The notes under the pieces were generated by a model. The model worked only from the letters and a program-made list of their open reading frames with translations. It was not told the DNA's origin and ran no database searches. A stretch of 29,867 bases of DNA from Veillonellaceae bacterium UBA5809 (GTDB lineage Bacteria; Bacillota; Negativicutes; Veillonellales; Dialisteraceae): NCBI GenBank assembly GCA_002417965.1, contig DIDD01000034.1, positions 1 through 29,867 on the forward strand. Reading direction: 5' to 3'. Numbering within the stretch: position 1 is the stretch's first letter; every line of letters starts with the position of its first letter. Positions 16,456-27,178 of the stretch are shown here, in pieces. The translations under genes and the position numbers were made by a program.

Positions 16456-17028
16456 ATGAAGGGGAAAGTCATGGCCGTATTTGCACAGAAAAAACAGTTC
16501 ATTTGTCTGGTTTCTCTTTTTTTTATATTATGCAGTATTTCACTGTGGATGTGGAAGCCGCCGAAGGATTCGGTACAGATTACTGCAGATGGCGGGAACA
16601 ATGAAAAAATGGCTGAGGAAAGCGGTGTCACAGTCTATGTTACCGGTGCGGTAAAGCATCCAGGGGTTTATGATCTGATGCCGGGGGCCCGCGTATCAGA
16701 TGCATTAAAAGCGGCTGGGGATGTACTTCCGTATGCCGATTTAGAAGAAATGAACCTGGCGGCACCGGCAGCGGACGGTATCCGGATCATGGTTCCAATA
16801 TGCCCGGAAACAGGTCAATATTCATCGGGAAACAGCGGTAAAATCCCCATTAACACAGCCACGGAAAGTGAACTGAACTCTGTTCCGGGAGTGGGTATTT
16901 CCACAGCCAAAAAGATTATTGAATATCGAGAGGCTCATGGATTCTTTCATGCGAAAGAAGATCTTATGAATATCCCCGGGATAGGAGAGGGGAAATTCCG
17001 AAAAATGGAAGACCGGATCACATTATGA
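16456..17028 (+). CDS. comEA: Competence DNA receptor ComEA
   Basis: N-terminal TM helix; SLBB domain VYVTGAVKHPGVY...RVSDALKAAG; helix-hairpin-helix IPINTATESELNSVPGVG...AKKIIEYRE...IPGIGEGK. SD GGGAGG upstream. Confidence 0.93.
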   Translation: MKGKVMAVFAQKKQFICLVSLFFILCSISLWMWKPPKDSVQITADGGNNEKMAEESGVTVYVTGAVKHPGVYDLMPGARVSDALKAAGDVLPYADLEEMNLAAPAADGIRIMVPICPETGQYSSGNSGKIPINTATESELNSVPGVGISTAKKIIEYREAHGFFHAKEDLMNIPGIGEGKFRKMEDRITL

Positions 17029-19295
17029 AGGAAGTCCCTTATTGGCCGTGTACTGCGCTGGGATTTGCGGCAGGTATCGGATACGTGTATTCGTTTGCAG
17101 GGCAGTACAGTCTATGGGCGGCATCGGCCGCTTCCGTTGCCGCAGCTTTTTTGTGTTATCTGACTTTCCGGAATCCCCGGCTGCTTCCTCTGTTCTGTGT
17201 GTGTGCTTTCACCGCAGCAGGCATATTGAGAATGAATGGAGAATTCTCTGTATGGCAGGCACAGTCACATTATCTGATAGGACATACCGGGCGTTATGAG
17301 GTTATTATAAAAGAAGAAGGACAAAAATTAAAAGAAGACGGCATCCGCTATAAAGCCGCTCTTGAAACAGTGAATTTTCCGGAAGGAGAAACCCGGAAAA
17401 TTCAAGGAACGGTTATGTTATATCTTCCCACTCAGCGGGCTGAGTTTCTGCCTGGGAGCCGTTTGTCTGTCCACGGAAAAATCGAATCTATCCGGTTTTA
17501 TGGAAATCCGGGGAAAATTAATTTAGCAGGACGTTATGAGGGAGAGAGAATACTTGGGAAAATTTTTATTGAGGATATCTCACATATTGCCTATTGGGGA
17601 CTTTCAAATCAATATCAAATAGACCGATGGTCACTTCAATGCAGAAAGCAGGTGGAAAAGAGTTTTTCCTTGTATATGGATCGAATCAGGCTTCCTGTTT
17701 TGATGACACTTATTTTTGGCGGATCCTATTCTGATATTCCTGACTCTGTTTTATCCGATTTTTCAGTAACGGGAATGATTCATATTTTATCCGTATCGGG
17801 ATCGCATATTTCACTTTTATTCAGCTTTATGTTTTTTATAGGCAGAATTCTTGGACTTCCCAGAAATGGGTCTGTTTTTGTGGCATCAGGACTGATTCTT
17901 GCATATGGATTTCTGGCTGGTATGGTTCCGCCGGTTTTTCGTGCTGTGATTATGGGACTTTTTACAGCAGGAGGAATATTCTTTAAAAGAGAAGGGCGGG
18001 CATTGGATTTTCTGGGAGCGGCAGTTTTTATTATGCTGCTGTGGAATCCTTTATATCTTTTTGACATTAGTTTTCAATTATCGGCAGGCGCTTCTGCGGG
18101 AATTCTCTTATGGGCAAGACGATGGTCCTTATGGCTGAAACAATATGCGGCTATGCCGTCCGGAATAGCTGATGGAATGGCCGTGACAGCGGCCTCCCAG
18201 ATTTTGACAGTTCCTTTTGTTTTATGGAATTTCCACGGTATGCCCCTTTATACAGTTATTGCCAATATGGCGGCAGGAGCTTTGCTGGAGATGTCAATCA
18301 TTGTGGGACTTTTGGCAGCGGCTGTTTCTTCGGTTTCTGTATCTCTGGCAGGCGGCCTGGTACAGTGTATTGACTATCTGATTTATTTTTCTTTATGGCT
18401 CATTCATGCTATAGGACAATGGCCTTATGCACGCATCCATACAGGAGGAATCAGTTTTTCGGGGGCGGTCTCCTATTATGCAGTGCTGGGCACGCTTCTC
18501 TTTGCTTTTAAAGAAGAGAACCAATTTTGGCGTGGAACCACTTTTTTTATATGGGGAACAGTGCTTGCAAAAGTACTGTTTTCTTTTTTTGAGTCAAGTT
18601 CATATATCGTGCTTATTCCGGACTTGGGGCAGGCTCGTGCAGTTGTGCTTCTAACAGACCGGGCCTGCGCTGTGTATTATAAAAATGGACAGGCAAAGAT
18701 AGATTTCGGGAAAAAAGAGCTGCAGTCTTTTTTGGAATATTATGGTATTTTTTCTATTGATTTCTTGTTTGTAGAACTGCAGAATGAACGGGATCCGCTG
18801 CCCTTTTCTCTGTCTATGCCGATTCAGTATGCTGGATTCAGCAGTAGCCGATATCCGTTCCTTTGTGCTACACTATTAAACAGCACACCGGTGCGTACAG
18901 GAGTCGTCACATCGGGACAGTCTGTTATGCTGGGAGATTTAAAGGGCTTTTATGATCATGGGCATTGGTTGTTTTCAGTAAAAAACGCAGGGGTTTTTAT
19001 AGACGGAGGCAGAGGAAATTTGGATAATTTTTCTTTGCCCTCCAATCAGAGAAAACTTCTTTGGATAGGCGGAACTCCTGAAGAAGGAGGTACTCTGGAT
19101 GAAGAGAAAATCCGTGCTATTGATCCGGATTATGCAGTTTATACAGGAAGCAATGGGGTTTTGGCAGGCGAAAACAAGGAACTGTTTATACTGATGGGCA
19201 GAAAAGTATATAACCCGGCGGAAACAGGGGCGGTTTCTGCGGTGTGGAATGGAAAATCATGGCATATTTCCTCTGCCGGTATCTATGGAAAGTGA
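17025..19295 (+). CDS. comEC: ComEC/Rec2 DNA uptake channel with degenerate C-terminal metallo-beta-lactamase-like domain
   Basis: TGMIHILSVSGSHIS, PPVFRAVIM, LWNPLYLFDISFQLS, ANM; many TM segments. ATGA overlap with comEA. Confidence 0.9.
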   Translation: MKEVPYWPCTALGFAAGIGYVYSFAGQYSLWAASAASVAAAFLCYLTFRNPRLLPLFCVCAFTAAGILRMNGEFSVWQAQSHYLIGHTGRYEVIIKEEGQKLKEDGIRYKAALETVNFPEGETRKIQGTVMLYLPTQRAEFLPGSRLSVHGKIESIRFYGNPGKINLAGRYEGERILGKIFIEDISHIAYWGLSNQYQIDRWSLQCRKQVEKSFSLYMDRIRLPVLMTLIFGGSYSDIPDSVLSDFSVTGMIHILSVSGSHISLLFSFMFFIGRILGLPRNGSVFVASGLILAYGFLAGMVPPVFRAVIMGLFTAGGIFFKREGRALDFLGAAVFIMLLWNPLYLFDISFQLSAGASAGILLWARRWSLWLKQYAAMPSGIADGMAVTAASQILTVPFVLWNFHGMPLYTVIANMAAGALLEMSIIVGLLAAAVSSVSVSLAGGLVQCIDYLIYFSLWLIHAIGQWPYARIHTGGISFSGAVSYYAVLGTLLFAFKEENQFWRGTTFFIWGTVLAKVLFSFFESSSYIVLIPDLGQARAVVLLTDRACAVYYKNGQAKIDFGKKELQSFLEYYGIFSIDFLFVELQNERDPLPFSLSMPIQYAGFSSSRYPFLCATLLNSTPVRTGVVTSGQSVMLGDLKGFYDHGHWLFSVKNAGVFIDGGRGNLDNFSLPSNQRKLLWIGGTPEEGGTLDEEKIRAIDPDYAVYTGSNGVLAGENKELFILMGRKVYNPAETGAVSAVWNGKSWHISSAGIYGK

Positions 19296-19305
19296 CAGGT
19301 TACTG

Positions 19306-20298
19306 ATGATGGAGAAGAAAAATAATTGCTGGCTGCTTTTTGGCAATGATTCTGTTTTAATTCATGAGAAAAGGCAGCGGTTTATAGAAAAATATTTTGG
19401 GGCTTTGTGTCCGGATCCGGTTGTTTTTGACGGAACAGGGACTTACGCCGACTGGATGGAGCAGATCCGGGGGCAGTCTTTATTTTCAGAGGCATCAGCG
19501 GTTTTTCTTAATAATCCTTCTTTTTTTATGCATGGCGTACAGGATGAAGAAGGCTTCGCAGACTTTATAAAGACATTGCAGGAGGCACCTTCTTCTGTCG
19601 CTATAGTGATTTCATATGAAGGAATCCCGGATCGGAGGATGAAGGCAGCCAAGACTCTTTTTCAAATCTGCTCCAGTATGGAATGTTCTTTTTTGAAGCT
19701 GGGATCGGCAGAAAGTTATCTTACAGAATGTTTTCACAGAAGGCGGGTTCTGGTTACAGAAGAAGCCCGTCTCTATTTATCCGATGTCATTACCGGGTGG
19801 GCCCATATATCCATTCCGTTTTTGGAAACGGAATGTGATAAAATTGCCCTTATGGCACGGGGAGGCATTGTCTCAAAGGAAATCATGGAGAATGCTCTTC
19901 CTTCTTATATGGATAAGGGGGTGTTCCGATTTTTTGACCATTTGCTGGAGAGGAATCTCAGTGCTGTTAAAATGGATATACCCGGAATATTTACGGATGA
20001 GTCAGCTTCGCTGATGACCCTCGGATTTTTGTCATCACGGCTGCGGAGAATTAAGATTTTCCATGAAATGAAGCGCTCGGGGTCTTCTGATGCCCACATA
20101 CAAAAAATACTTGGAATCCGTACCAGGTGGTCATGGAATGAGCTTCTGAAGCAGACAAAGTGTATTTCAGAAGAAGAGGCTGAATTTTTGTTGATGGCTT
20201 TATTTCAGTATCAATATGCAGCCAGATTGGAAGGAGCGGATTCCCATATGCTGACAGATATATTGTTTCGTTTCTGCAGAAGGGGAGGAATTTCGTGA
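19306..20298 (+). CDS. holA: DNA polymerase III subunit delta
   Basis: comEC-holA gene order; WLLFGND, QSLFSE, ETECDKIAL, VFRFFD; length and helical C-terminus fit. Start uncertain (19306 or 19309). Confidence 0.8.
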   Translation: MMEKKNNCWLLFGNDSVLIHEKRQRFIEKYFGALCPDPVVFDGTGTYADWMEQIRGQSLFSEASAVFLNNPSFFMHGVQDEEGFADFIKTLQEAPSSVAIVISYEGIPDRRMKAAKTLFQICSSMECSFLKLGSAESYLTECFHRRRVLVTEEARLYLSDVITGWAHISIPFLETECDKIALMARGGIVSKEIMENALPSYMDKGVFRFFDHLLERNLSAVKMDIPGIFTDESASLMTLGFLSSRLRRIKIFHEMKRSGSSDAHIQKILGIRTRWSWNELLKQTKCISEEEAEFLLMALFQYQYAARLEGADSHMLTDILFRFCRRGGIS

Positions 20299-21665
20299 AT
20301 TTTAAGATATGGATAGCTGCTGCTGCTTTTCTGGGACTTGGAGCGGCGCCTTTCTTGTGGAGTCCGCCTGGAACCGTTATTTACGGTATGACAGCAGATC
20401 AAATTCCCATAGGCGGTATGACGAGAGATGACTTAAAAGAAATGATTGCTGAACAAAATACACGCATTTCCCAAGAGAGTCTGACTGTTTTCCATGGAGA
20501 TGTCAAGGAAACCTGGAGTTATCGTGAATTGAACGTTCATCTCGAAACGGAGAAGCTTGTGCAGCAGATCATGGGAGAAGGACAGAATAATCATTGGCTT
20601 TCTGATTGGTGGGACCGGTGGACAGCGCTGGTGGGGCACCGTGACATTTCACTCCCTGTACAGTGGGATGATGAGAAGCTGCATACGCGGATCAGCAGGA
20701 TGGAGACAAAGTACAGTCAGGAAGCCGATGACGGGCAAGTAGAGTTTCAGCAGGATGGAAGTGTATCTTTTTCCGGGGGCCGTCCTTATTTAAAAATTTC
20801 AACAGATGAATTATATGACAGGGCTGTCCGGCAAATACGTACAGAAACGGGAGGATCTGTAGAAATACCCGTTGCAGAAGAAGTGCAGCCTGCGTTGCAT
20901 GGAGAAGTGCGCCGGCAGATTAATGCTGTGCTGGCTTCTTACACGACAGAATTTCCGCTGGACCATAACAGAAATGAAAATATCCGTCTGGCGGCTTCCC
21001 GCATTTCCAGGCGTATTGTTCTTCCGGGAGAAAGTTTTTCATTTAATTCGGCCACGGGTCTGAGAACTAAAGAGGCCGGATATCTTGAGGCGCCTGTTTT
21101 TATGAATGGGAAACTGGTGCCTGATGCAGGGGGCGGAGTCTGCCAGGTAAGCAGTACTCTGTTTAATGCGGTTTTGGAAGCAGGGCTGGAGATCGAGGAG
21201 AGGACCTGTCACTTCGCTCCTGTGGGATATGTAGCGGCGGGAAGAGATGCTACTGTAGCAGATCATTACATTGATTTTGTTTTTAGAAATCAACTGGCCC
21301 GCCCTGTTTATATTTATGCCATCTACGGTCCGGGGGCCATACAAGTTTATATCCTTGGGAACCGGGAGGATATACCGGATCATGTTGATATTGTACAGAC
21401 CCGTTTTACTGTCAATCCCCACCGGACGGTCTACCATTCGGATCCGTCCCAAAAAGAAGGAAAATTTACAGAATATGGACATGATGGATATGATGTAATG
21501 ATACGCAGGGATATTATAAAAAAAGGGGTAAAGAAGACGGATGAATTCCAATCTGTTTATGATCCGGTAGATACGGTGATTTCTCTTAAAGATCCGGAGG
21601 AAGCCCGGAAAATGGAGAAGTTACAAGGAGAAAAGGCAGCTGATAAGGAGAGTTCTGGCGTATGA
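20295..21665 (+). CDS. VanW-family (YoaR-like) exported protein with peptidoglycan-binding region
   Basis: N-terminal signal/TM; NRNENIRLAA, VLPGESFSFN, GGGVCQVSSTLFNAVL, GRDATV, DFVFRN motifs of the VanW domain. Confidence 0.88.
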   Translation: MNFKIWIAAAAFLGLGAAPFLWSPPGTVIYGMTADQIPIGGMTRDDLKEMIAEQNTRISQESLTVFHGDVKETWSYRELNVHLETEKLVQQIMGEGQNNHWLSDWWDRWTALVGHRDISLPVQWDDEKLHTRISRMETKYSQEADDGQVEFQQDGSVSFSGGRPYLKISTDELYDRAVRQIRTETGGSVEIPVAEEVQPALHGEVRRQINAVLASYTTEFPLDHNRNENIRLAASRISRRIVLPGESFSFNSATGLRTKEAGYLEAPVFMNGKLVPDAGGGVCQVSSTLFNAVLEAGLEIEERTCHFAPVGYVAAGRDATVADHYIDFVFRNQLARPVYIYAIYGPGAIQVYILGNREDIPDHVDIVQTRFTVNPHRTVYHSDPSQKEGKFTEYGHDGYDVMIRRDIIKKGVKKTDEFQSVYDPVDTVISLKDPEEARKMEKLQGEKAADKESSGV

Positions 21666-24600
21666 AAAAATACAGGCTTCAGCCTAAAAATCATGAAAAG
21701 CCTATTTTAACATTGGAAGTAGATACTGAAAACAGGGACTGGTATATTGACACGGATGACATGGAAGGGGCTGTGCAGGCACTGAAAAATTTTTCATCGG
21801 ACTGTGCCCATGTTCATGCATTTTTTATTAACGGGAAAGACTGTACGGAAGATGTCCGTATGATTTCTGCCTGCAGAGTGTGCGCCGGAACTGTGCAAAT
21901 ACCGGGCATACCCACATTGGACAGTGTGCTTCCTGCAGGCGCTTTTACACCTCCTGCGGGAAAGAACGGGACGGGAAAATTTGACGGGCTGTTTTTGGGG
22001 CGGCGCCATATCAGCGGATCACCGGTTCCTATTCAGGGATTGACGCAGGAAACTGACGGTGCGGTTATTCAGGGGACAGTGGTTGAATATGATTTAAAGG
22101 ATCTTCGGGATAATAAAAAGCTGTGTATATTAAAGATTGCTGATGAAACAAACGGAATGCTTTGTAAGAGATTTTTTGACAAAGGGGATGATGCGCTTTC
22201 TCTTGAAGAATATCTTAAACCGGGAATGACGGTCAAACTGCGGGGAAATGTGCGTATAGACAAGTTTTCAGGAGATTTTGCACTGCAGATTTCTCAGATG
22301 GAACAGGTGCAGAATATAGTATGTGTTGACCATGAGGAGCATAGTGTCACACCGAGGGTGGAACTCCATCTCCATACAAAGATGAGTCTGGATGGGCTGA
22401 TCGACTTGGAACGGATTATTAAGACAATTGCGCGGTGGAAACATCCGGCTGTGGCCATTACAGATCATGGAGTGATACAGGCTTTTCCAAAAATTCAGGA
22501 TCTGGCTAAAAAATACGGGGTCAAAGTTATTTATGGGATGGAAGGGTATATGATAGAAAAAATCCCTGATGATATTGATGCCGACCGTCAGAGATATGAT
22601 CATATTATTATTCTGGCCCGTAATATGACAGGGCTGCGCAATTTATACCGTATGGTTACATTGTCCCATTTAAAATTTTATAAAAAAAGACCGCTCATCC
22701 CTAAACCCGTACTGAAAGAATTCAGAGAAGGACTTATATATGGATCAGCTTGTGTCATGGGAGAGTTTTTCCGCGCTGTTCTGGCAGGGAAGAGTGATGA
22801 AGAACTGGTCAAAACCGCTTCTTTTTATGATTATCTGGAAGTACAGCCTTTGTGCAACAATGCTTTTCTTATTAATGATGATAAGTATGGGGATATTACA
22901 TCCATGGAAGATCTCAAGCGTTTGAACCGGAAGGTTATTGAGATCGGTGAAAAATCAGGCAGGCCTGTATGTGCAACCAGCGATGCTCATTTCCTATTTC
23001 AGGAGGAGCAGATATACCGGGATATTCTTCTTGCCAAATGGGACAAGCCGGGAAAGGAGGAATCACATCCTCCGGTATATATACGCACCACACAGGAAAT
23101 GATGGACGAATTCAATTATCTGCCAAAGGAAAAAGCAAAGGAAATTGTGATAGAGAACACAAGGAAAATTGCAGCATCCTGCGATGTCCTTGAACCGCTG
23201 GCTGATGAAAGCAAATCTTACAATCCAAAGATATCCGGTGCTGATGAAGCGCTGATTCATATGTGCTATGACCGGGCGTATTCAATTTATGGGAATCCTC
23301 TTCCGGAATTGGTGAAAGAGCGGCTGGAATCTGAACTGCGGCCTATTACAAAACACGGATTCGGTGTTTTGTATTATATTGCCCATAAATTGGTCAAGCA
23401 TTCAAATGACAGAGGATATCTGGTGGGATCCCGTGGATCCGTCGGTTCTTCCTTTGTGGCTACGATGGCAGGAATTACAGAAGTGAATCCGCTTCCGCCG
23501 CATTATGTATGTCCTCATTGTCACTGGTCGCATTTTTTTACGGATGGATCAGTAGGAGGCGGTTTTGACCTCCCGGATAAAAAATGCCCTCAGTGTGGGG
23601 CAGATCTCCATAAAGACGGGCATGATATTCCGTTTGCTGTATTCCTGGGGTTTGACGGAGATAAAGTGCCTGATATTGATTTGAATTTTTCGTCCGGCGA
23701 TGATCAGGCGGTAGCCCATAAATATACAGAGGAACTTTTTGGAAGAGATAATGTATTCCGGGCAGGCACTATTACAGGCATACAGGATAAAACAGCTTTT
23801 GGATATGTGCGTAAATATGCTGAACTGCGCGGCCTGAACTGCAATGATATTTTTATGGAAAAACTGTCTTCCGGGATTACCGGGGTCAAGAGCACTACCG
23901 GTCAGCATCCGGCAGGAATCATGGTATGCCCCCGTGATATGGATATTCATGAATTTACACCTCTTCAGTATTCGGCCAATAAAAAAGCATCAGGAACAAT
24001 TACTACCCATTTTGACTATCACTCCATTTCAGGACGTATGCTTAAGCTTGATATTCTGGGCCATGATGATCCCCGTGTCATCAGAATGCTTCAGGACCTG
24101 ACAGGAGTGGATCCGCTGAAAATTCCCTTCAATGACAGGCGAACACAGTCATTGTTCAGTTCTCCGGATGAACTTGGAATCACGGCGGATCAATTGGGAA
24201 GCATTATCGGAACAAGGGGGAATACCGTGGGGTCTATTGGGCTTCCTGAGTATGGAACGTTATTTGTGCGTAAAATGCTGGAAGATACAAAACCTAAAAA
24301 TTTCTCGGAACTGGTACGTATATCAGGATTTTCCCATGGGACAAATGTATGGGTAAATAATGCCCAGGATCTGATCAAAAATGGAACGGTCAAACTGGAA
24401 GAGGCCATTTCCACACGGGATGATGTCATGAATTATCTGATTGCCCACGGCGTGAAGCCAATTACGTCATTTAAAGTCATGGAAAATGTCAGGAAGGGGA
24501 AGGGACTTGAAAAGGCTGATAAAAAGGGAAATATGTCTAACAATAAAAAAGAACTGGAAGAGGTGCATGTACCTCAATGGTTCATTGATTCCTGTGAAAA

Positions 24601-25144
24601 GATTTCCTACCTGTTTCCCCGCGCCCATGCGGTTGCTTATGTTATGATGGCTTTCCGCATTGCATGGTTTAAGGTTTATTATCCATTGGCATTTTATGCA
24701 GCCTATTTTACAATTCGGGCGGTGGGAGCTTTTAATGCAGGGGTGATTCTCCGCGGATTGGATTCACAAAAATCGGAATTGAAAAGGATAGCAGGAATGG
24801 ATTCTCCTACGGCAGTTGATAAGGATACAGCCGTAGTGATTGAAGTGGCTGCAGAAATGTATTTGAGGGGATTTTCTTTTTTACCCGTGGATCTCAGTCA
24901 TTCTGATGCTTCTCAATTTCAAATCGTAGGACAGCAGCTCCTTCCGCCTTTTAACTGTATTCCGGCGCTGGGCGAGCAGGCAGCACTTGATATTATCCAG
25001 GCGCGCAATGAGGCTCCGTTTACTTCAAAAGAGGATTTGAGAAAGAGAGGGAAGGTCAGTCAGGCTGTTATCGACACAATGGATTCGATGGGGATTCTTA
25101 GAGGGCTTCCCGATGAAGAACAGCTGAATCTTTTTGCTTTGTAA
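21662..25144 (+). CDS. polC: DNA polymerase III PolC-type alpha subunit lacking the exonuclease insertion, 1160 aa
   Basis: OB fold; PHP motifs ELHLHTKMS, AITDHG, YGMEG, SDAH; GSRGSVGSS; Zn finger CPHC...CPQC; catalytic PDIDLNF and KLDILGHDDP; YLFPRAHAVAYV. Confidence 0.97.
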   Translation: MKKYRLQPKNHEKPILTLEVDTENRDWYIDTDDMEGAVQALKNFSSDCAHVHAFFINGKDCTEDVRMISACRVCAGTVQIPGIPTLDSVLPAGAFTPPAGKNGTGKFDGLFLGRRHISGSPVPIQGLTQETDGAVIQGTVVEYDLKDLRDNKKLCILKIADETNGMLCKRFFDKGDDALSLEEYLKPGMTVKLRGNVRIDKFSGDFALQISQMEQVQNIVCVDHEEHSVTPRVELHLHTKMSLDGLIDLERIIKTIARWKHPAVAITDHGVIQAFPKIQDLAKKYGVKVIYGMEGYMIEKIPDDIDADRQRYDHIIILARNMTGLRNLYRMVTLSHLKFYKKRPLIPKPVLKEFREGLIYGSACVMGEFFRAVLAGKSDEELVKTASFYDYLEVQPLCNNAFLINDDKYGDITSMEDLKRLNRKVIEIGEKSGRPVCATSDAHFLFQEEQIYRDILLAKWDKPGKEESHPPVYIRTTQEMMDEFNYLPKEKAKEIVIENTRKIAASCDVLEPLADESKSYNPKISGADEALIHMCYDRAYSIYGNPLPELVKERLESELRPITKHGFGVLYYIAHKLVKHSNDRGYLVGSRGSVGSSFVATMAGITEVNPLPPHYVCPHCHWSHFFTDGSVGGGFDLPDKKCPQCGADLHKDGHDIPFAVFLGFDGDKVPDIDLNFSSGDDQAVAHKYTEELFGRDNVFRAGTITGIQDKTAFGYVRKYAELRGLNCNDIFMEKLSSGITGVKSTTGQHPAGIMVCPRDMDIHEFTPLQYSANKKASGTITTHFDYHSISGRMLKLDILGHDDPRVIRMLQDLTGVDPLKIPFNDRRTQSLFSSPDELGITADQLGSIIGTRGNTVGSIGLPEYGTLFVRKMLEDTKPKNFSELVRISGFSHGTNVWVNNAQDLIKNGTVKLEEAISTRDDVMNYLIAHGVKPITSFKVMENVRKGKGLEKADKKGNMSNNKKELEEVHVPQWFIDSCEKISYLFPRAHAVAYVMMAFRIAWFKVYYPLAFYAAYFTIRAVGAFNAGVILRGLDSQKSELKRIAGMDSPTAVDKDTAVVIEVAAEMYLRGFSFLPVDLSHSDASQFQIVGQQLLPPFNCIPALGEQAALDIIQARNEAPFTSKEDLRKRGKVSQAVIDTMDSMGILRGLPDEEQLNLFAL

Positions 25145-26134: not shown

Positions 26135-27178
26135 TTAACGTATCATACGGGCAGACAGAACATCACTTACGCGTTCTGTGGGCATATCATCGCTGTCGTA
26201 TAAAAGGCCTTTCGGGCTTTTTATAATCATCTGATCGATCAGATTCTGTTTTACAATATCATTGACGGCAGTTAAAAAACCACGGCATGCCCGGTCATGA
26301 TATTCTTTGGTAATCAATCTTGAAAGTCCCGGCGCTTTCAGGCGCTGCTGAATATAGAACTGATGAATGGCTTTCCAGCTGATTCTTTGGGGACATGCAC
26401 GGAGCATGACGATTACCCGGTAGTCCAGGCCCTTTAAAAATTCAATAGTTTTCATGGTGTTTTCCGGATTTTCAAGGGAACCTTCAATGATGAGATTATA
26501 GTGATGCTGTGCAGCATAACGTGCGGTAAGACGTGACATAAGCCGTGCCATGGGCAGTGTATAGTAAGCGCAGCAACGTCCGTGTTTTTCGGCTAATTCA
26601 TGATGACTGGGATGAAATCCCCTGAAATTATCATCCATGGCCTGGATAATATCTCCTCTATGAGTTTCAATGAGGACTGAGGACATTCTTGTTTTTCCCG
26701 AACCAGGCTGCCCCGCCACCAGATAGGCGACAGGATTACGCAGAGAACCCGTTTTAGAACTGCAGACAGAAGGCCATACCTTCTCCCGGAATAATTCATT
26801 CATGACTGAATCAGCAAAGTCAGTGTCATTTTCCTGAATATGGGGGTTTGCTGAGGGGACTGATGCCGGAAGAAAAATCTGATCTTTTACATAGGCAGTT
26901 TCTATGGAGAAAGCTTCCTTCAGCATGGAAAGCTGATCTTCCATGGACAGGCCCCATCCGGTTCTGGTCTCTACAGCGGCCAGTTCATGAATGGTTTTTC
27001 TCCACAGAGCATAGAGACGTTTCTGATCCTGTATGAGCCGGTCTGATAGAGACTGGGTACTGGACAGCAGATTATTTACTGTTGTAAAAATTTCAGCATT
27101 GACTTCCAATTGTATTCCCATGGGAGTAATATCTGCGGAATCCCGGAGTTCTTTGACCGTCCGCTCGTCATATGGCAT
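26135..27178 (-). CDS. Zeta-toxin (PezT-like) P-loop kinase with ~117-aa N-terminal extension, 347 aa
   Basis: AYLVAGQPGSGKT, DDNFRGFHP, YNLIIEGS, SRLITKEYHD, LLYDS. Aligns to PezT as I recall it at a constant offset of 117 residues. SD AAAGGA upstream. Confidence 0.85.
   Translation of the reverse strand: MPYDERTVKELRDSADITPMGIQLEVNAEIFTTVNNLLSSTQSLSDRLIQDQKRLYALWRKTIHELAAVETRTGWGLSMEDQLSMLKEAFSIETAYVKDQIFLPASVPSANPHIQENDTDFADSVMNELFREKVWPSVCSSKTGSLRNPVAYLVAGQPGSGKTRMSSVLIETHRGDIIQAMDDNFRGFHPSHHELAEKHGRCCAYYTLPMARLMSRLTARYAAQHHYNLIIEGSLENPENTMKTIEFLKGLDYRVIVMLRACPQRISWKAIHQFYIQQRLKAPGLSRLITKEYHDRACRGFLTAVNDIVKQNLIDQMIIKSPKGLLYDSDDMPTERVSDVLSARMIR

Follow-up and report, generated by a model that had tools for sequence, protein, structure and literature searches.

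The PolC polymerases of Bacillus subtilis, Staphylococcus aureus and Geobacillus kaustophilus carry a DnaQ-like 3'-5' exonuclease inserted within the PHP domain, in the loop adjoining the PHP active site (PMC5636811). A comparative survey found that 6% of PolCs are devoid of this exonuclease (Exo) insertion, that these exo-less PolCs occur, with one exception, only in Clostridia and Negativicutes, and that they always belong to systems in which PolC is paired with DnaE1 (Timinskas et al., Nucleic Acids Res. 2014, PMC3919608). According to the same survey, the DnaE1 of Clostridia possesses all the features of a stand-alone replicase. In DnaE1 of Mycobacterium tuberculosis, the PHP domain is itself the proofreader (PMC5636811). 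Here we describe a PolC without the exonuclease insertion, encoded in a 29,867-nt stretch of DNA (hereafter the window) from a Veillonellaceae bacterium of the class Negativicutes, and weigh the candidate proofreading routes available to it.

An open reading frame on the forward strand of the window (21662-25144) encodes, by its translation, a PolC-type polymerase of 1160 amino acids (aa). The protein was placed in the PolC group by full-length matches above the equivalog cut-offs of both NCBIfam PolC models, NF001688 (1378 bits, cut-off 873) and TIGR01405 (1276 bits, cut-off 1043). Its Pfam domains follow the PolC-type order, with OB (residues 135-214) N-terminal to PHP (234-384), then DNA_pol3_alpha (530-800) and the finger domain (804-957), and HHH_6 (1071-1149) C-terminal to the polymerase core. 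The match to each NCBIfam model is split in two and resumes at residue 302 (model position 604) after some 200 skipped model positions. The hallmark of canonical PolC, a DnaQ-like exonuclease inserted in PHP, is missing, and Pfam detected no RNase_T/DEDDh domain in the protein even at E<=1. At a site where canonical PolCs hold about 190-215 aa, there is a peptide of 17 aa, MIEKIPDDIDADRQRYD (residues 297-313, nt 22550-22600), flanked exactly by the motifs YGMEGY and HIIILA.

Structural comparison gave the same picture. The best solved-structure match was 3F2B, a G. kaustophilus PolC construct without the exonuclease domain (PMC3919608 Fig. 1), which aligned in one stretch over residues 125-1159 and of which the Veillonellaceae PolC is in effect the natural version. 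The full-length PolC 9qpc aligned in two stretches, leaving its residues ~445-631 (~187 aa) without a counterpart. From an alignment of 42 sequences, AlphaFold2 gave a model (mean predicted local distance difference test, pLDDT, 88) that superposed on 3F2B with a template-modelling (TM) score of 0.92, normalised to the target. The protein shares with canonical PolCs its fold, its putative catalytic aspartates and a C-terminal clamp motif, and its identity with the G. kaustophilus enzyme is 48%; it differs in lacking their DnaQ-like domain of ~190 aa in the PHP loop. Since no RNase_T domain was found at E<=1 and ~187 aa of 9qpc were unmatched, it is filed under the published exo-less subgroup and not as a canonical PolC. 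A first-pass annotation of the sequence had counted 17 residues between the two motifs, had stated that canonical PolC carries a DEDDh insertion of roughly 200 aa at precisely that site, and had mentioned that exo-less PolCs appear in comparative surveys; the domain scan, the ~187 unmatched residues with the ~200 skipped model positions, and PMC3919608 bear it out on each of these points.

The architecture as such is already known, having been published in 2014 (Timinskas, Balvociute, Timinskas and Venclovas, PMC3919608), and nothing essential separates the Veillonellaceae protein, one more member, from the PolCs described there. It groups with PolC without the Exo insertion, shows the same OB, PHP, Pol3 and HhH series preceded by a short N-terminal region that Pfam leaves unnamed, has a conserved PHP metal site, occurs in Negativicutes, and is found together with DnaE1 rather than DnaE3, as is the rule for the subgroup in Clostridia and Negativicutes.

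An artefact, be it assembly collapse, a pseudogene or an exonuclease domain that lies unseen in another part of PolC, was considered because the source genome is a fragmented metagenome-assembled genome (MAG; 1.5 Mb, 148 contigs, 75% complete), and nothing beyond this speaks for it. The identical PolC protein is present on 13 contigs (25 member sequences). An unbroken match was obtained in 40/40 relatives, which represent four families of the order and have open frames 1165-1294 aa long, and an unbroken exo-less PolC in 151/151 genomes of the class Negativicutes (29 families, 63 genera), where the frames are 1085-1350 aa long and each match extends over some 3.0-3.3 kb. Assembly collapse, which the first-pass annotation had named as a possible refutation, is therefore ruled out by the 13 replicate contigs together with the same open junction in 191 related genomes, a pseudogene by the frame being open in those 191 genomes, and a hidden exonuclease domain by the Pfam search at E<=1 and the confident full-length AlphaFold2 model, neither of which contains a DEDDh fold. 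That the missing domain is artefactual is thus barely conceivable.

These searches also mapped the trait. In 61 distinct Negativicutes PolCs the loop corresponding to E294-H314 measures 5-36 aa, and among the matches listed in a class-wide RNase_T search none lay in a frame longer than 1012 aa; matches in frames of ~865 aa are, we assume, probably DinG-type helicase fusions. With 151/151 genomes carrying an unbroken PolC and no RNase_T match in a frame longer than 1012 aa, the missing insertion characterises the class Negativicutes throughout, as far as it was sampled, as had been suspected from the single sequence. Two further observations were made at the polC loci of relatives. One genome contains, apart from its main polC, a second, partial PolC-like copy (C1:1871934-1873664) with an internal TAG, 56-62% identical over residues 531-702 and 778-1159. 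At the polC loci of four relatives, open frames of 1607-1711 aa run on the strand opposite to polC and its neighbours, probably as a composition effect.

The wider distribution of the insertion was followed with 150 PolCs from an exhaustive search of cluster representatives. The alignment and tree set comprised 159 PolCs, namely the 137 representatives of at least 1100 aa and 22 Negativicutes sequences; a loop of <=61 aa was scored as exo-less and one of 142-413 aa as Exo-containing. The tree was a quick, unrooted FastTree tree with the insertion columns removed, in which some exo-less representatives stand for single-member clusters. Negativicutes PolCs formed one clade (support 100) nested among the other PolCs. 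Presence or absence of the insertion requires 18 changes on the tree, at least 15 of which are forced by well-supported branches. We infer that these changes are repeated losses, because entry of the same domain into the same loop that often is implausible. The exo-less form is unlikely to be the ancestral PolC state, since exo-less lineages are nested among Exo-containing ones at 15 or more places of the unrooted tree. One further protein in the comparison, a PolC-type protein of 1178 aa (P0259; a cluster of nine members on several contigs, outside the window), has an 11-aa loop without the Exo insertion and degenerate PHP ligands (HRSLENSDQ), and no site for proofreading can be recognised in it; its sister on the quick tree is an Exo-containing, PHP-degenerate PolC.

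We then considered what may proofread for an exo-less PolC. The nine PHP metal ligands, H236, H238, D244, H269, E294, H314, C364, D441 and H443, are all present; those listed in the first-pass annotation were correct, and H314 completes the set. The resulting motif, HHDHEHCDH, is invariant across the 61 distinct Negativicutes PolCs extracted, and conforms to the nine-ligand pattern of PHP-exonuclease proofreaders, HHDHEH[C/H]DH, by which a 2026 survey defined an 'active' PHP site (PMC12926913); that survey also describes three candidate proofreaders as usual in Clostridia. G. kaustophilus PolC, in contrast, has N at the position of D441 in the structure alignment, which fits the published statement that one of its PHP ligands is mutated and that it has no PHP exonuclease activity (PMC5636811). 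The loop adjoining the PHP site is 19 aa long in the Veillonellaceae PolC, compared with 18 aa for Taq and 29 aa for M. tuberculosis (PMC5636811). The protein thus resembles M. tuberculosis DnaE1 and Thermus Pol III alpha in its nine-ligand set (five His, three Asp/Glu, one Cys) and in loop length. It differs from these PHP-exonuclease proofreaders (PMC5636811) in polymerase group, being a PolC and not a DnaE1, and its own PHP exonuclease activity is a predicted one.

Genetic evidence from another organism bears on this site. In Clostridium thermocellum, the point mutation C669Y in PolC alone yields a 30-fold mutator, C669 being the cysteine among the PHP ligands and the counterpart of G. kaustophilus C670, and the authors inferred the mechanism from the position of the residue (bioRxiv 10.1101/2021.07.30.454558). 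C364 of the Veillonellaceae PolC occupies the same position, and in both organisms PolC has an intact PHP site and is paired with DnaE1; the C. thermocellum enzyme differs in keeping its Exo domain. C669Y provides genetic evidence for a role of the PHP site of PolC in the fidelity of PolC+DnaE1 replisomes.

On this basis, the explanation that we consider probable is that the protein would be a functional PolC replicase of a Veillonellales gut bacterium in whose lineage the DnaQ-type 3'-5' exonuclease, located in the PHP loop of canonical PolC, would have been lost. The loss would have left an ordinary PHP loop of 19 residues, as in DnaE-type polymerases, and proofreading would be performed in cis by the PHP domain, whose trinuclear metal site shares its nine intact ligands with M. 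tuberculosis DnaE1 and Thermus Pol III alpha. Support comes from the nine ligands being intact and invariant in 61 PolCs, with the precedent of M. tuberculosis DnaE1, and from the wider pattern in the set of 159, where the full PHP motif was kept in 44/45 exo-less PolCs and in 69/114 Exo-containing PolCs, the ligands being degenerate in the other 45/114. We infer exonuclease activity and the main proofreading role for the PHP site.

The genome was also searched for a free exonuclease, as the first-pass annotation had proposed. One RNase_T gene was found in the MAG, encoding a 195-aa protein, P0122 (contig C144:5970-6554, minus strand), which matches PF00929 at 69.6 bits and has every DEDDh residue (D7, E9, D91, H144, D149). 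The genome therefore offers two candidate routes, an intact PHP site (in PolC and DnaE1) and one free DEDDh exonuclease. P0122 might proofread in trans, as an epsilon-like accessory reaching the primer end through the beta clamp or PolC, and that its gene is the only RNase_T-domain gene found in the MAG speaks for this. Of the NCBIfam models, one for the epsilon subunit, NF004844, fits it best, but at 185.6 bits against a cut-off of 373 and over the nuclease half of the model only; TIGR00573 scored 54 against 71.5, and P0122 thus falls short of equivalog-level epsilon (DnaQ) membership. It is also not a split-off PolC exonuclease domain, a candidate that was rejected as its score with the PolC model is only 63 bits, its best match is the epsilon-type model and it has look-alikes in other phyla. 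Because such look-alike clusters occur in several phyla, including Spirochaetota and Pseudomonadota, P0122 is, as judged by these matches, a widespread small exonuclease that is not specific to exo-less lineages.

The C-terminus of P0122 ends in KAVSLF, that of orthologues in sister genera in KPMSLF or KPVSLF, and that of orthologues in another family of the order in EQLSFF or EQMSFF; QDTFF and QGALF tails occur in further orthologues, and an upstream G[QL]xL[KRSH]xF motif is found class-wide. These tails are putative beta-clamp motifs and would favour a role in trans, but the assignment is one of resemblance to QL[SD]LF only, and xSLF, QLSFF or QMSFF tails are found in many but not all orthologues, the terminal xSLF being missing in one genus of the same family.

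The distribution of P0122 cuts both ways. Orthologues were found in every genome sampled from the family (31/31) and from the order (27/27), but in 121/151 of the class, so that the P0122 query found none in 30/151. In 12 of the 151 class genomes, searches with P0122 and PF00929 found no DEDDh domain at all; ten of these were rechecked with TIGR00573 and gave no credible match, three complete single-contig genomes among them. In all class genomes without a detected DEDDh domain, PolC is exo-less and its PHP ligands are intact, which supports the PHP reading; any replicative proofreading in them would not be of the DnaQ type, absence here meaning 'not found' in a filtered search. The comparative evidence favours the PHP route over the free exonuclease, and we hold proofreading in trans by P0122 to be unlikely.

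A further explanation, raised in PMC3919608, is that DnaE1 replicates the chromosome while the exo-less PolC serves in a specialised role that tolerates the lack of a DnaQ-type proofreader. The MAG encodes a full-length DnaE that matches NF005298 at 1425 bits, with NF005298 and NF004226 both above cut-off, and has an intact PHP motif (HLHTH, D, TDH, GCE, HLILLA, SAC, NDFH; HHDHEHCDH). We assign it as a probable DnaE1, by model matches and PHP features rather than by a tree. This assignment, the stand-alone replicase features of clostridial DnaE1 and the restriction of exo-less PolCs to PolC+DnaE1 systems (PMC3919608) speak for such a division of labour. PolC, on the other hand, is intact in 151/151 class genomes. 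D671, D673 and D797, the putative catalytic aspartates, are invariant in the PolC alignments, as are the PHP ligands, and the protein ends in QLNLF, of which Q1154 and F1158 are nearly invariant and which, by comparison with the QL[SD]LF consensus, is a likely clamp-binding motif. The gene lies in a same-strand cluster in the order comEC, holA, a VanW-like gene and polC, the part preceding polC occupying 17025-21665 of the window. With its invariant putative catalytic aspartates, its QLNLF end and its clustering with holA, PolC looks active and replisomal. Moreover, the 30-fold mutator caused by a PolC point mutation alone in C. thermocellum implies that a substantial part of genome synthesis falls to PolC in an organism with both PolC and DnaE1. 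A specialised PolC beside a replicating DnaE1 is therefore, in our judgement, quite improbable.

Several points nevertheless weigh against PHP proofreading in cis. A free DEDDh exonuclease, catalytically complete by sequence, is present in the source genome and in every sampled genome of the order; the MAG is incomplete, as mentioned above; and the statement that no DEDDh domain was found elsewhere in the class rests on a filtered six-frame search. PHP sites can also serve structural or other phosphoesterase roles, according to PMC3666897 and PMC4822814. Intact PHP ligands occur in many Exo-containing clostridial PolCs as well. A naive Fisher test of PHP retention against Exo loss gave p = 4e-7 but ignores phylogeny; among 15 phylogenetically independent pairs, PHP differed in about 2.4 and extra retention after Exo loss was not significant (median p 0.5), because Exo-containing sister lineages keep PHP too. 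The proposal of stronger PHP retention after loss of the exonuclease was thus dropped in spite of the Fisher value, in favour of the narrower statement that domain loss occurred almost only on PHP-intact backgrounds (17/18).

Table 1. Features of the polC locus, in positions of the window.
Feature	Position	Strand	Basis
polC, PolC-type DNA polymerase III alpha without exonuclease insertion	21662..25144	+	open reading frame, NCBIfam, AlphaFold2 model
OB domain, N-terminal to PHP	22064..22303	+	Pfam PF01336, residues 135-214
PHP domain, continuous, nine metal ligands all present	22355..23221	+	Pfam PF02811; motif HHDHEHCDH
PHP ligand codons H236, H238, D244	22367..22393	+	alignment
PHP ligand codon H269, motif TDH	22466..22468	+	alignment
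PHP ligand codon E294, motif GMEGY	22541..22543	+	alignment
19-residue loop E294-H314, site of the DnaQ-like domain in canonical PolC	22544..22600	+	structure alignment
PHP ligand codon H314, motif HIIILA	22601..22603	+	alignment
PHP ligand codon C364, position of G. kaustophilus C670 / C. thermocellum C669	22751..22753	+	alignment
PHP ligand codons D441, H443; N in G. kaustophilus PolC at D441 position	22982..22990	+	alignment
Polymerase core, palm and fingers	23249..24532	+	Pfam PF07733, PF17657
Putative catalytic aspartates D671, D673	23672-23680	+	invariant columns
Putative catalytic aspartate D797	24050-24052	+	invariant column
Tandem helix-hairpin-helix domain	24872..25108	+	Pfam PF14579
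QLNLF, beta-clamp-binding-type motif, two residues (AL) before C-terminus	25121..25135	+	sequence
holA, Pol III delta subunit, two genes upstream of polC	19249..20298	+	Pfam PF06144
VanW-like gene, stop codon overlaps polC start by 4 nt (ATGA)	20295..21665	+	sequence

The VanW-like gene before polC is of the peptidoglycan-binding type. Elsewhere in the window, between queG and cbiZ, the minus strand (26135-27178) encodes a protein of 347 aa in which residues 145-330 form a Zeta_toxin domain preceded by an N-terminal extension.

The polC locus on its own adds little, its architecture having been published; what is added to PMC3919608 is that the trait now covers every sampled Negativicutes genome (151/151). 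A combined picture may be drawn, in which Negativicutes would have PHP-type proofreading only, some members being without any DnaQ-like nuclease, and P0122 of the Veillonellales would be an unrecognised clamp-bound epsilon-like accessory partly replacing the lost domain; we put this forward as a doubtful, if conceivable, proposal. Exo-less PolCs are natural single-variable cases for the question of which nuclease proofreads in PolC+DnaE1 replisomes. As relatives in the Veillonella and Dialister groups share the exo-less form, a genetically workable organism may exist within the class, and the several complete genomes in which no DnaQ-like domain was found would allow PHP proofreading to be tested in a clean system. 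Antibiotics directed at PolC and models of replication fidelity derived from the PolCs of Bacillus or Staphylococcus may not carry over to the Negativicutes.

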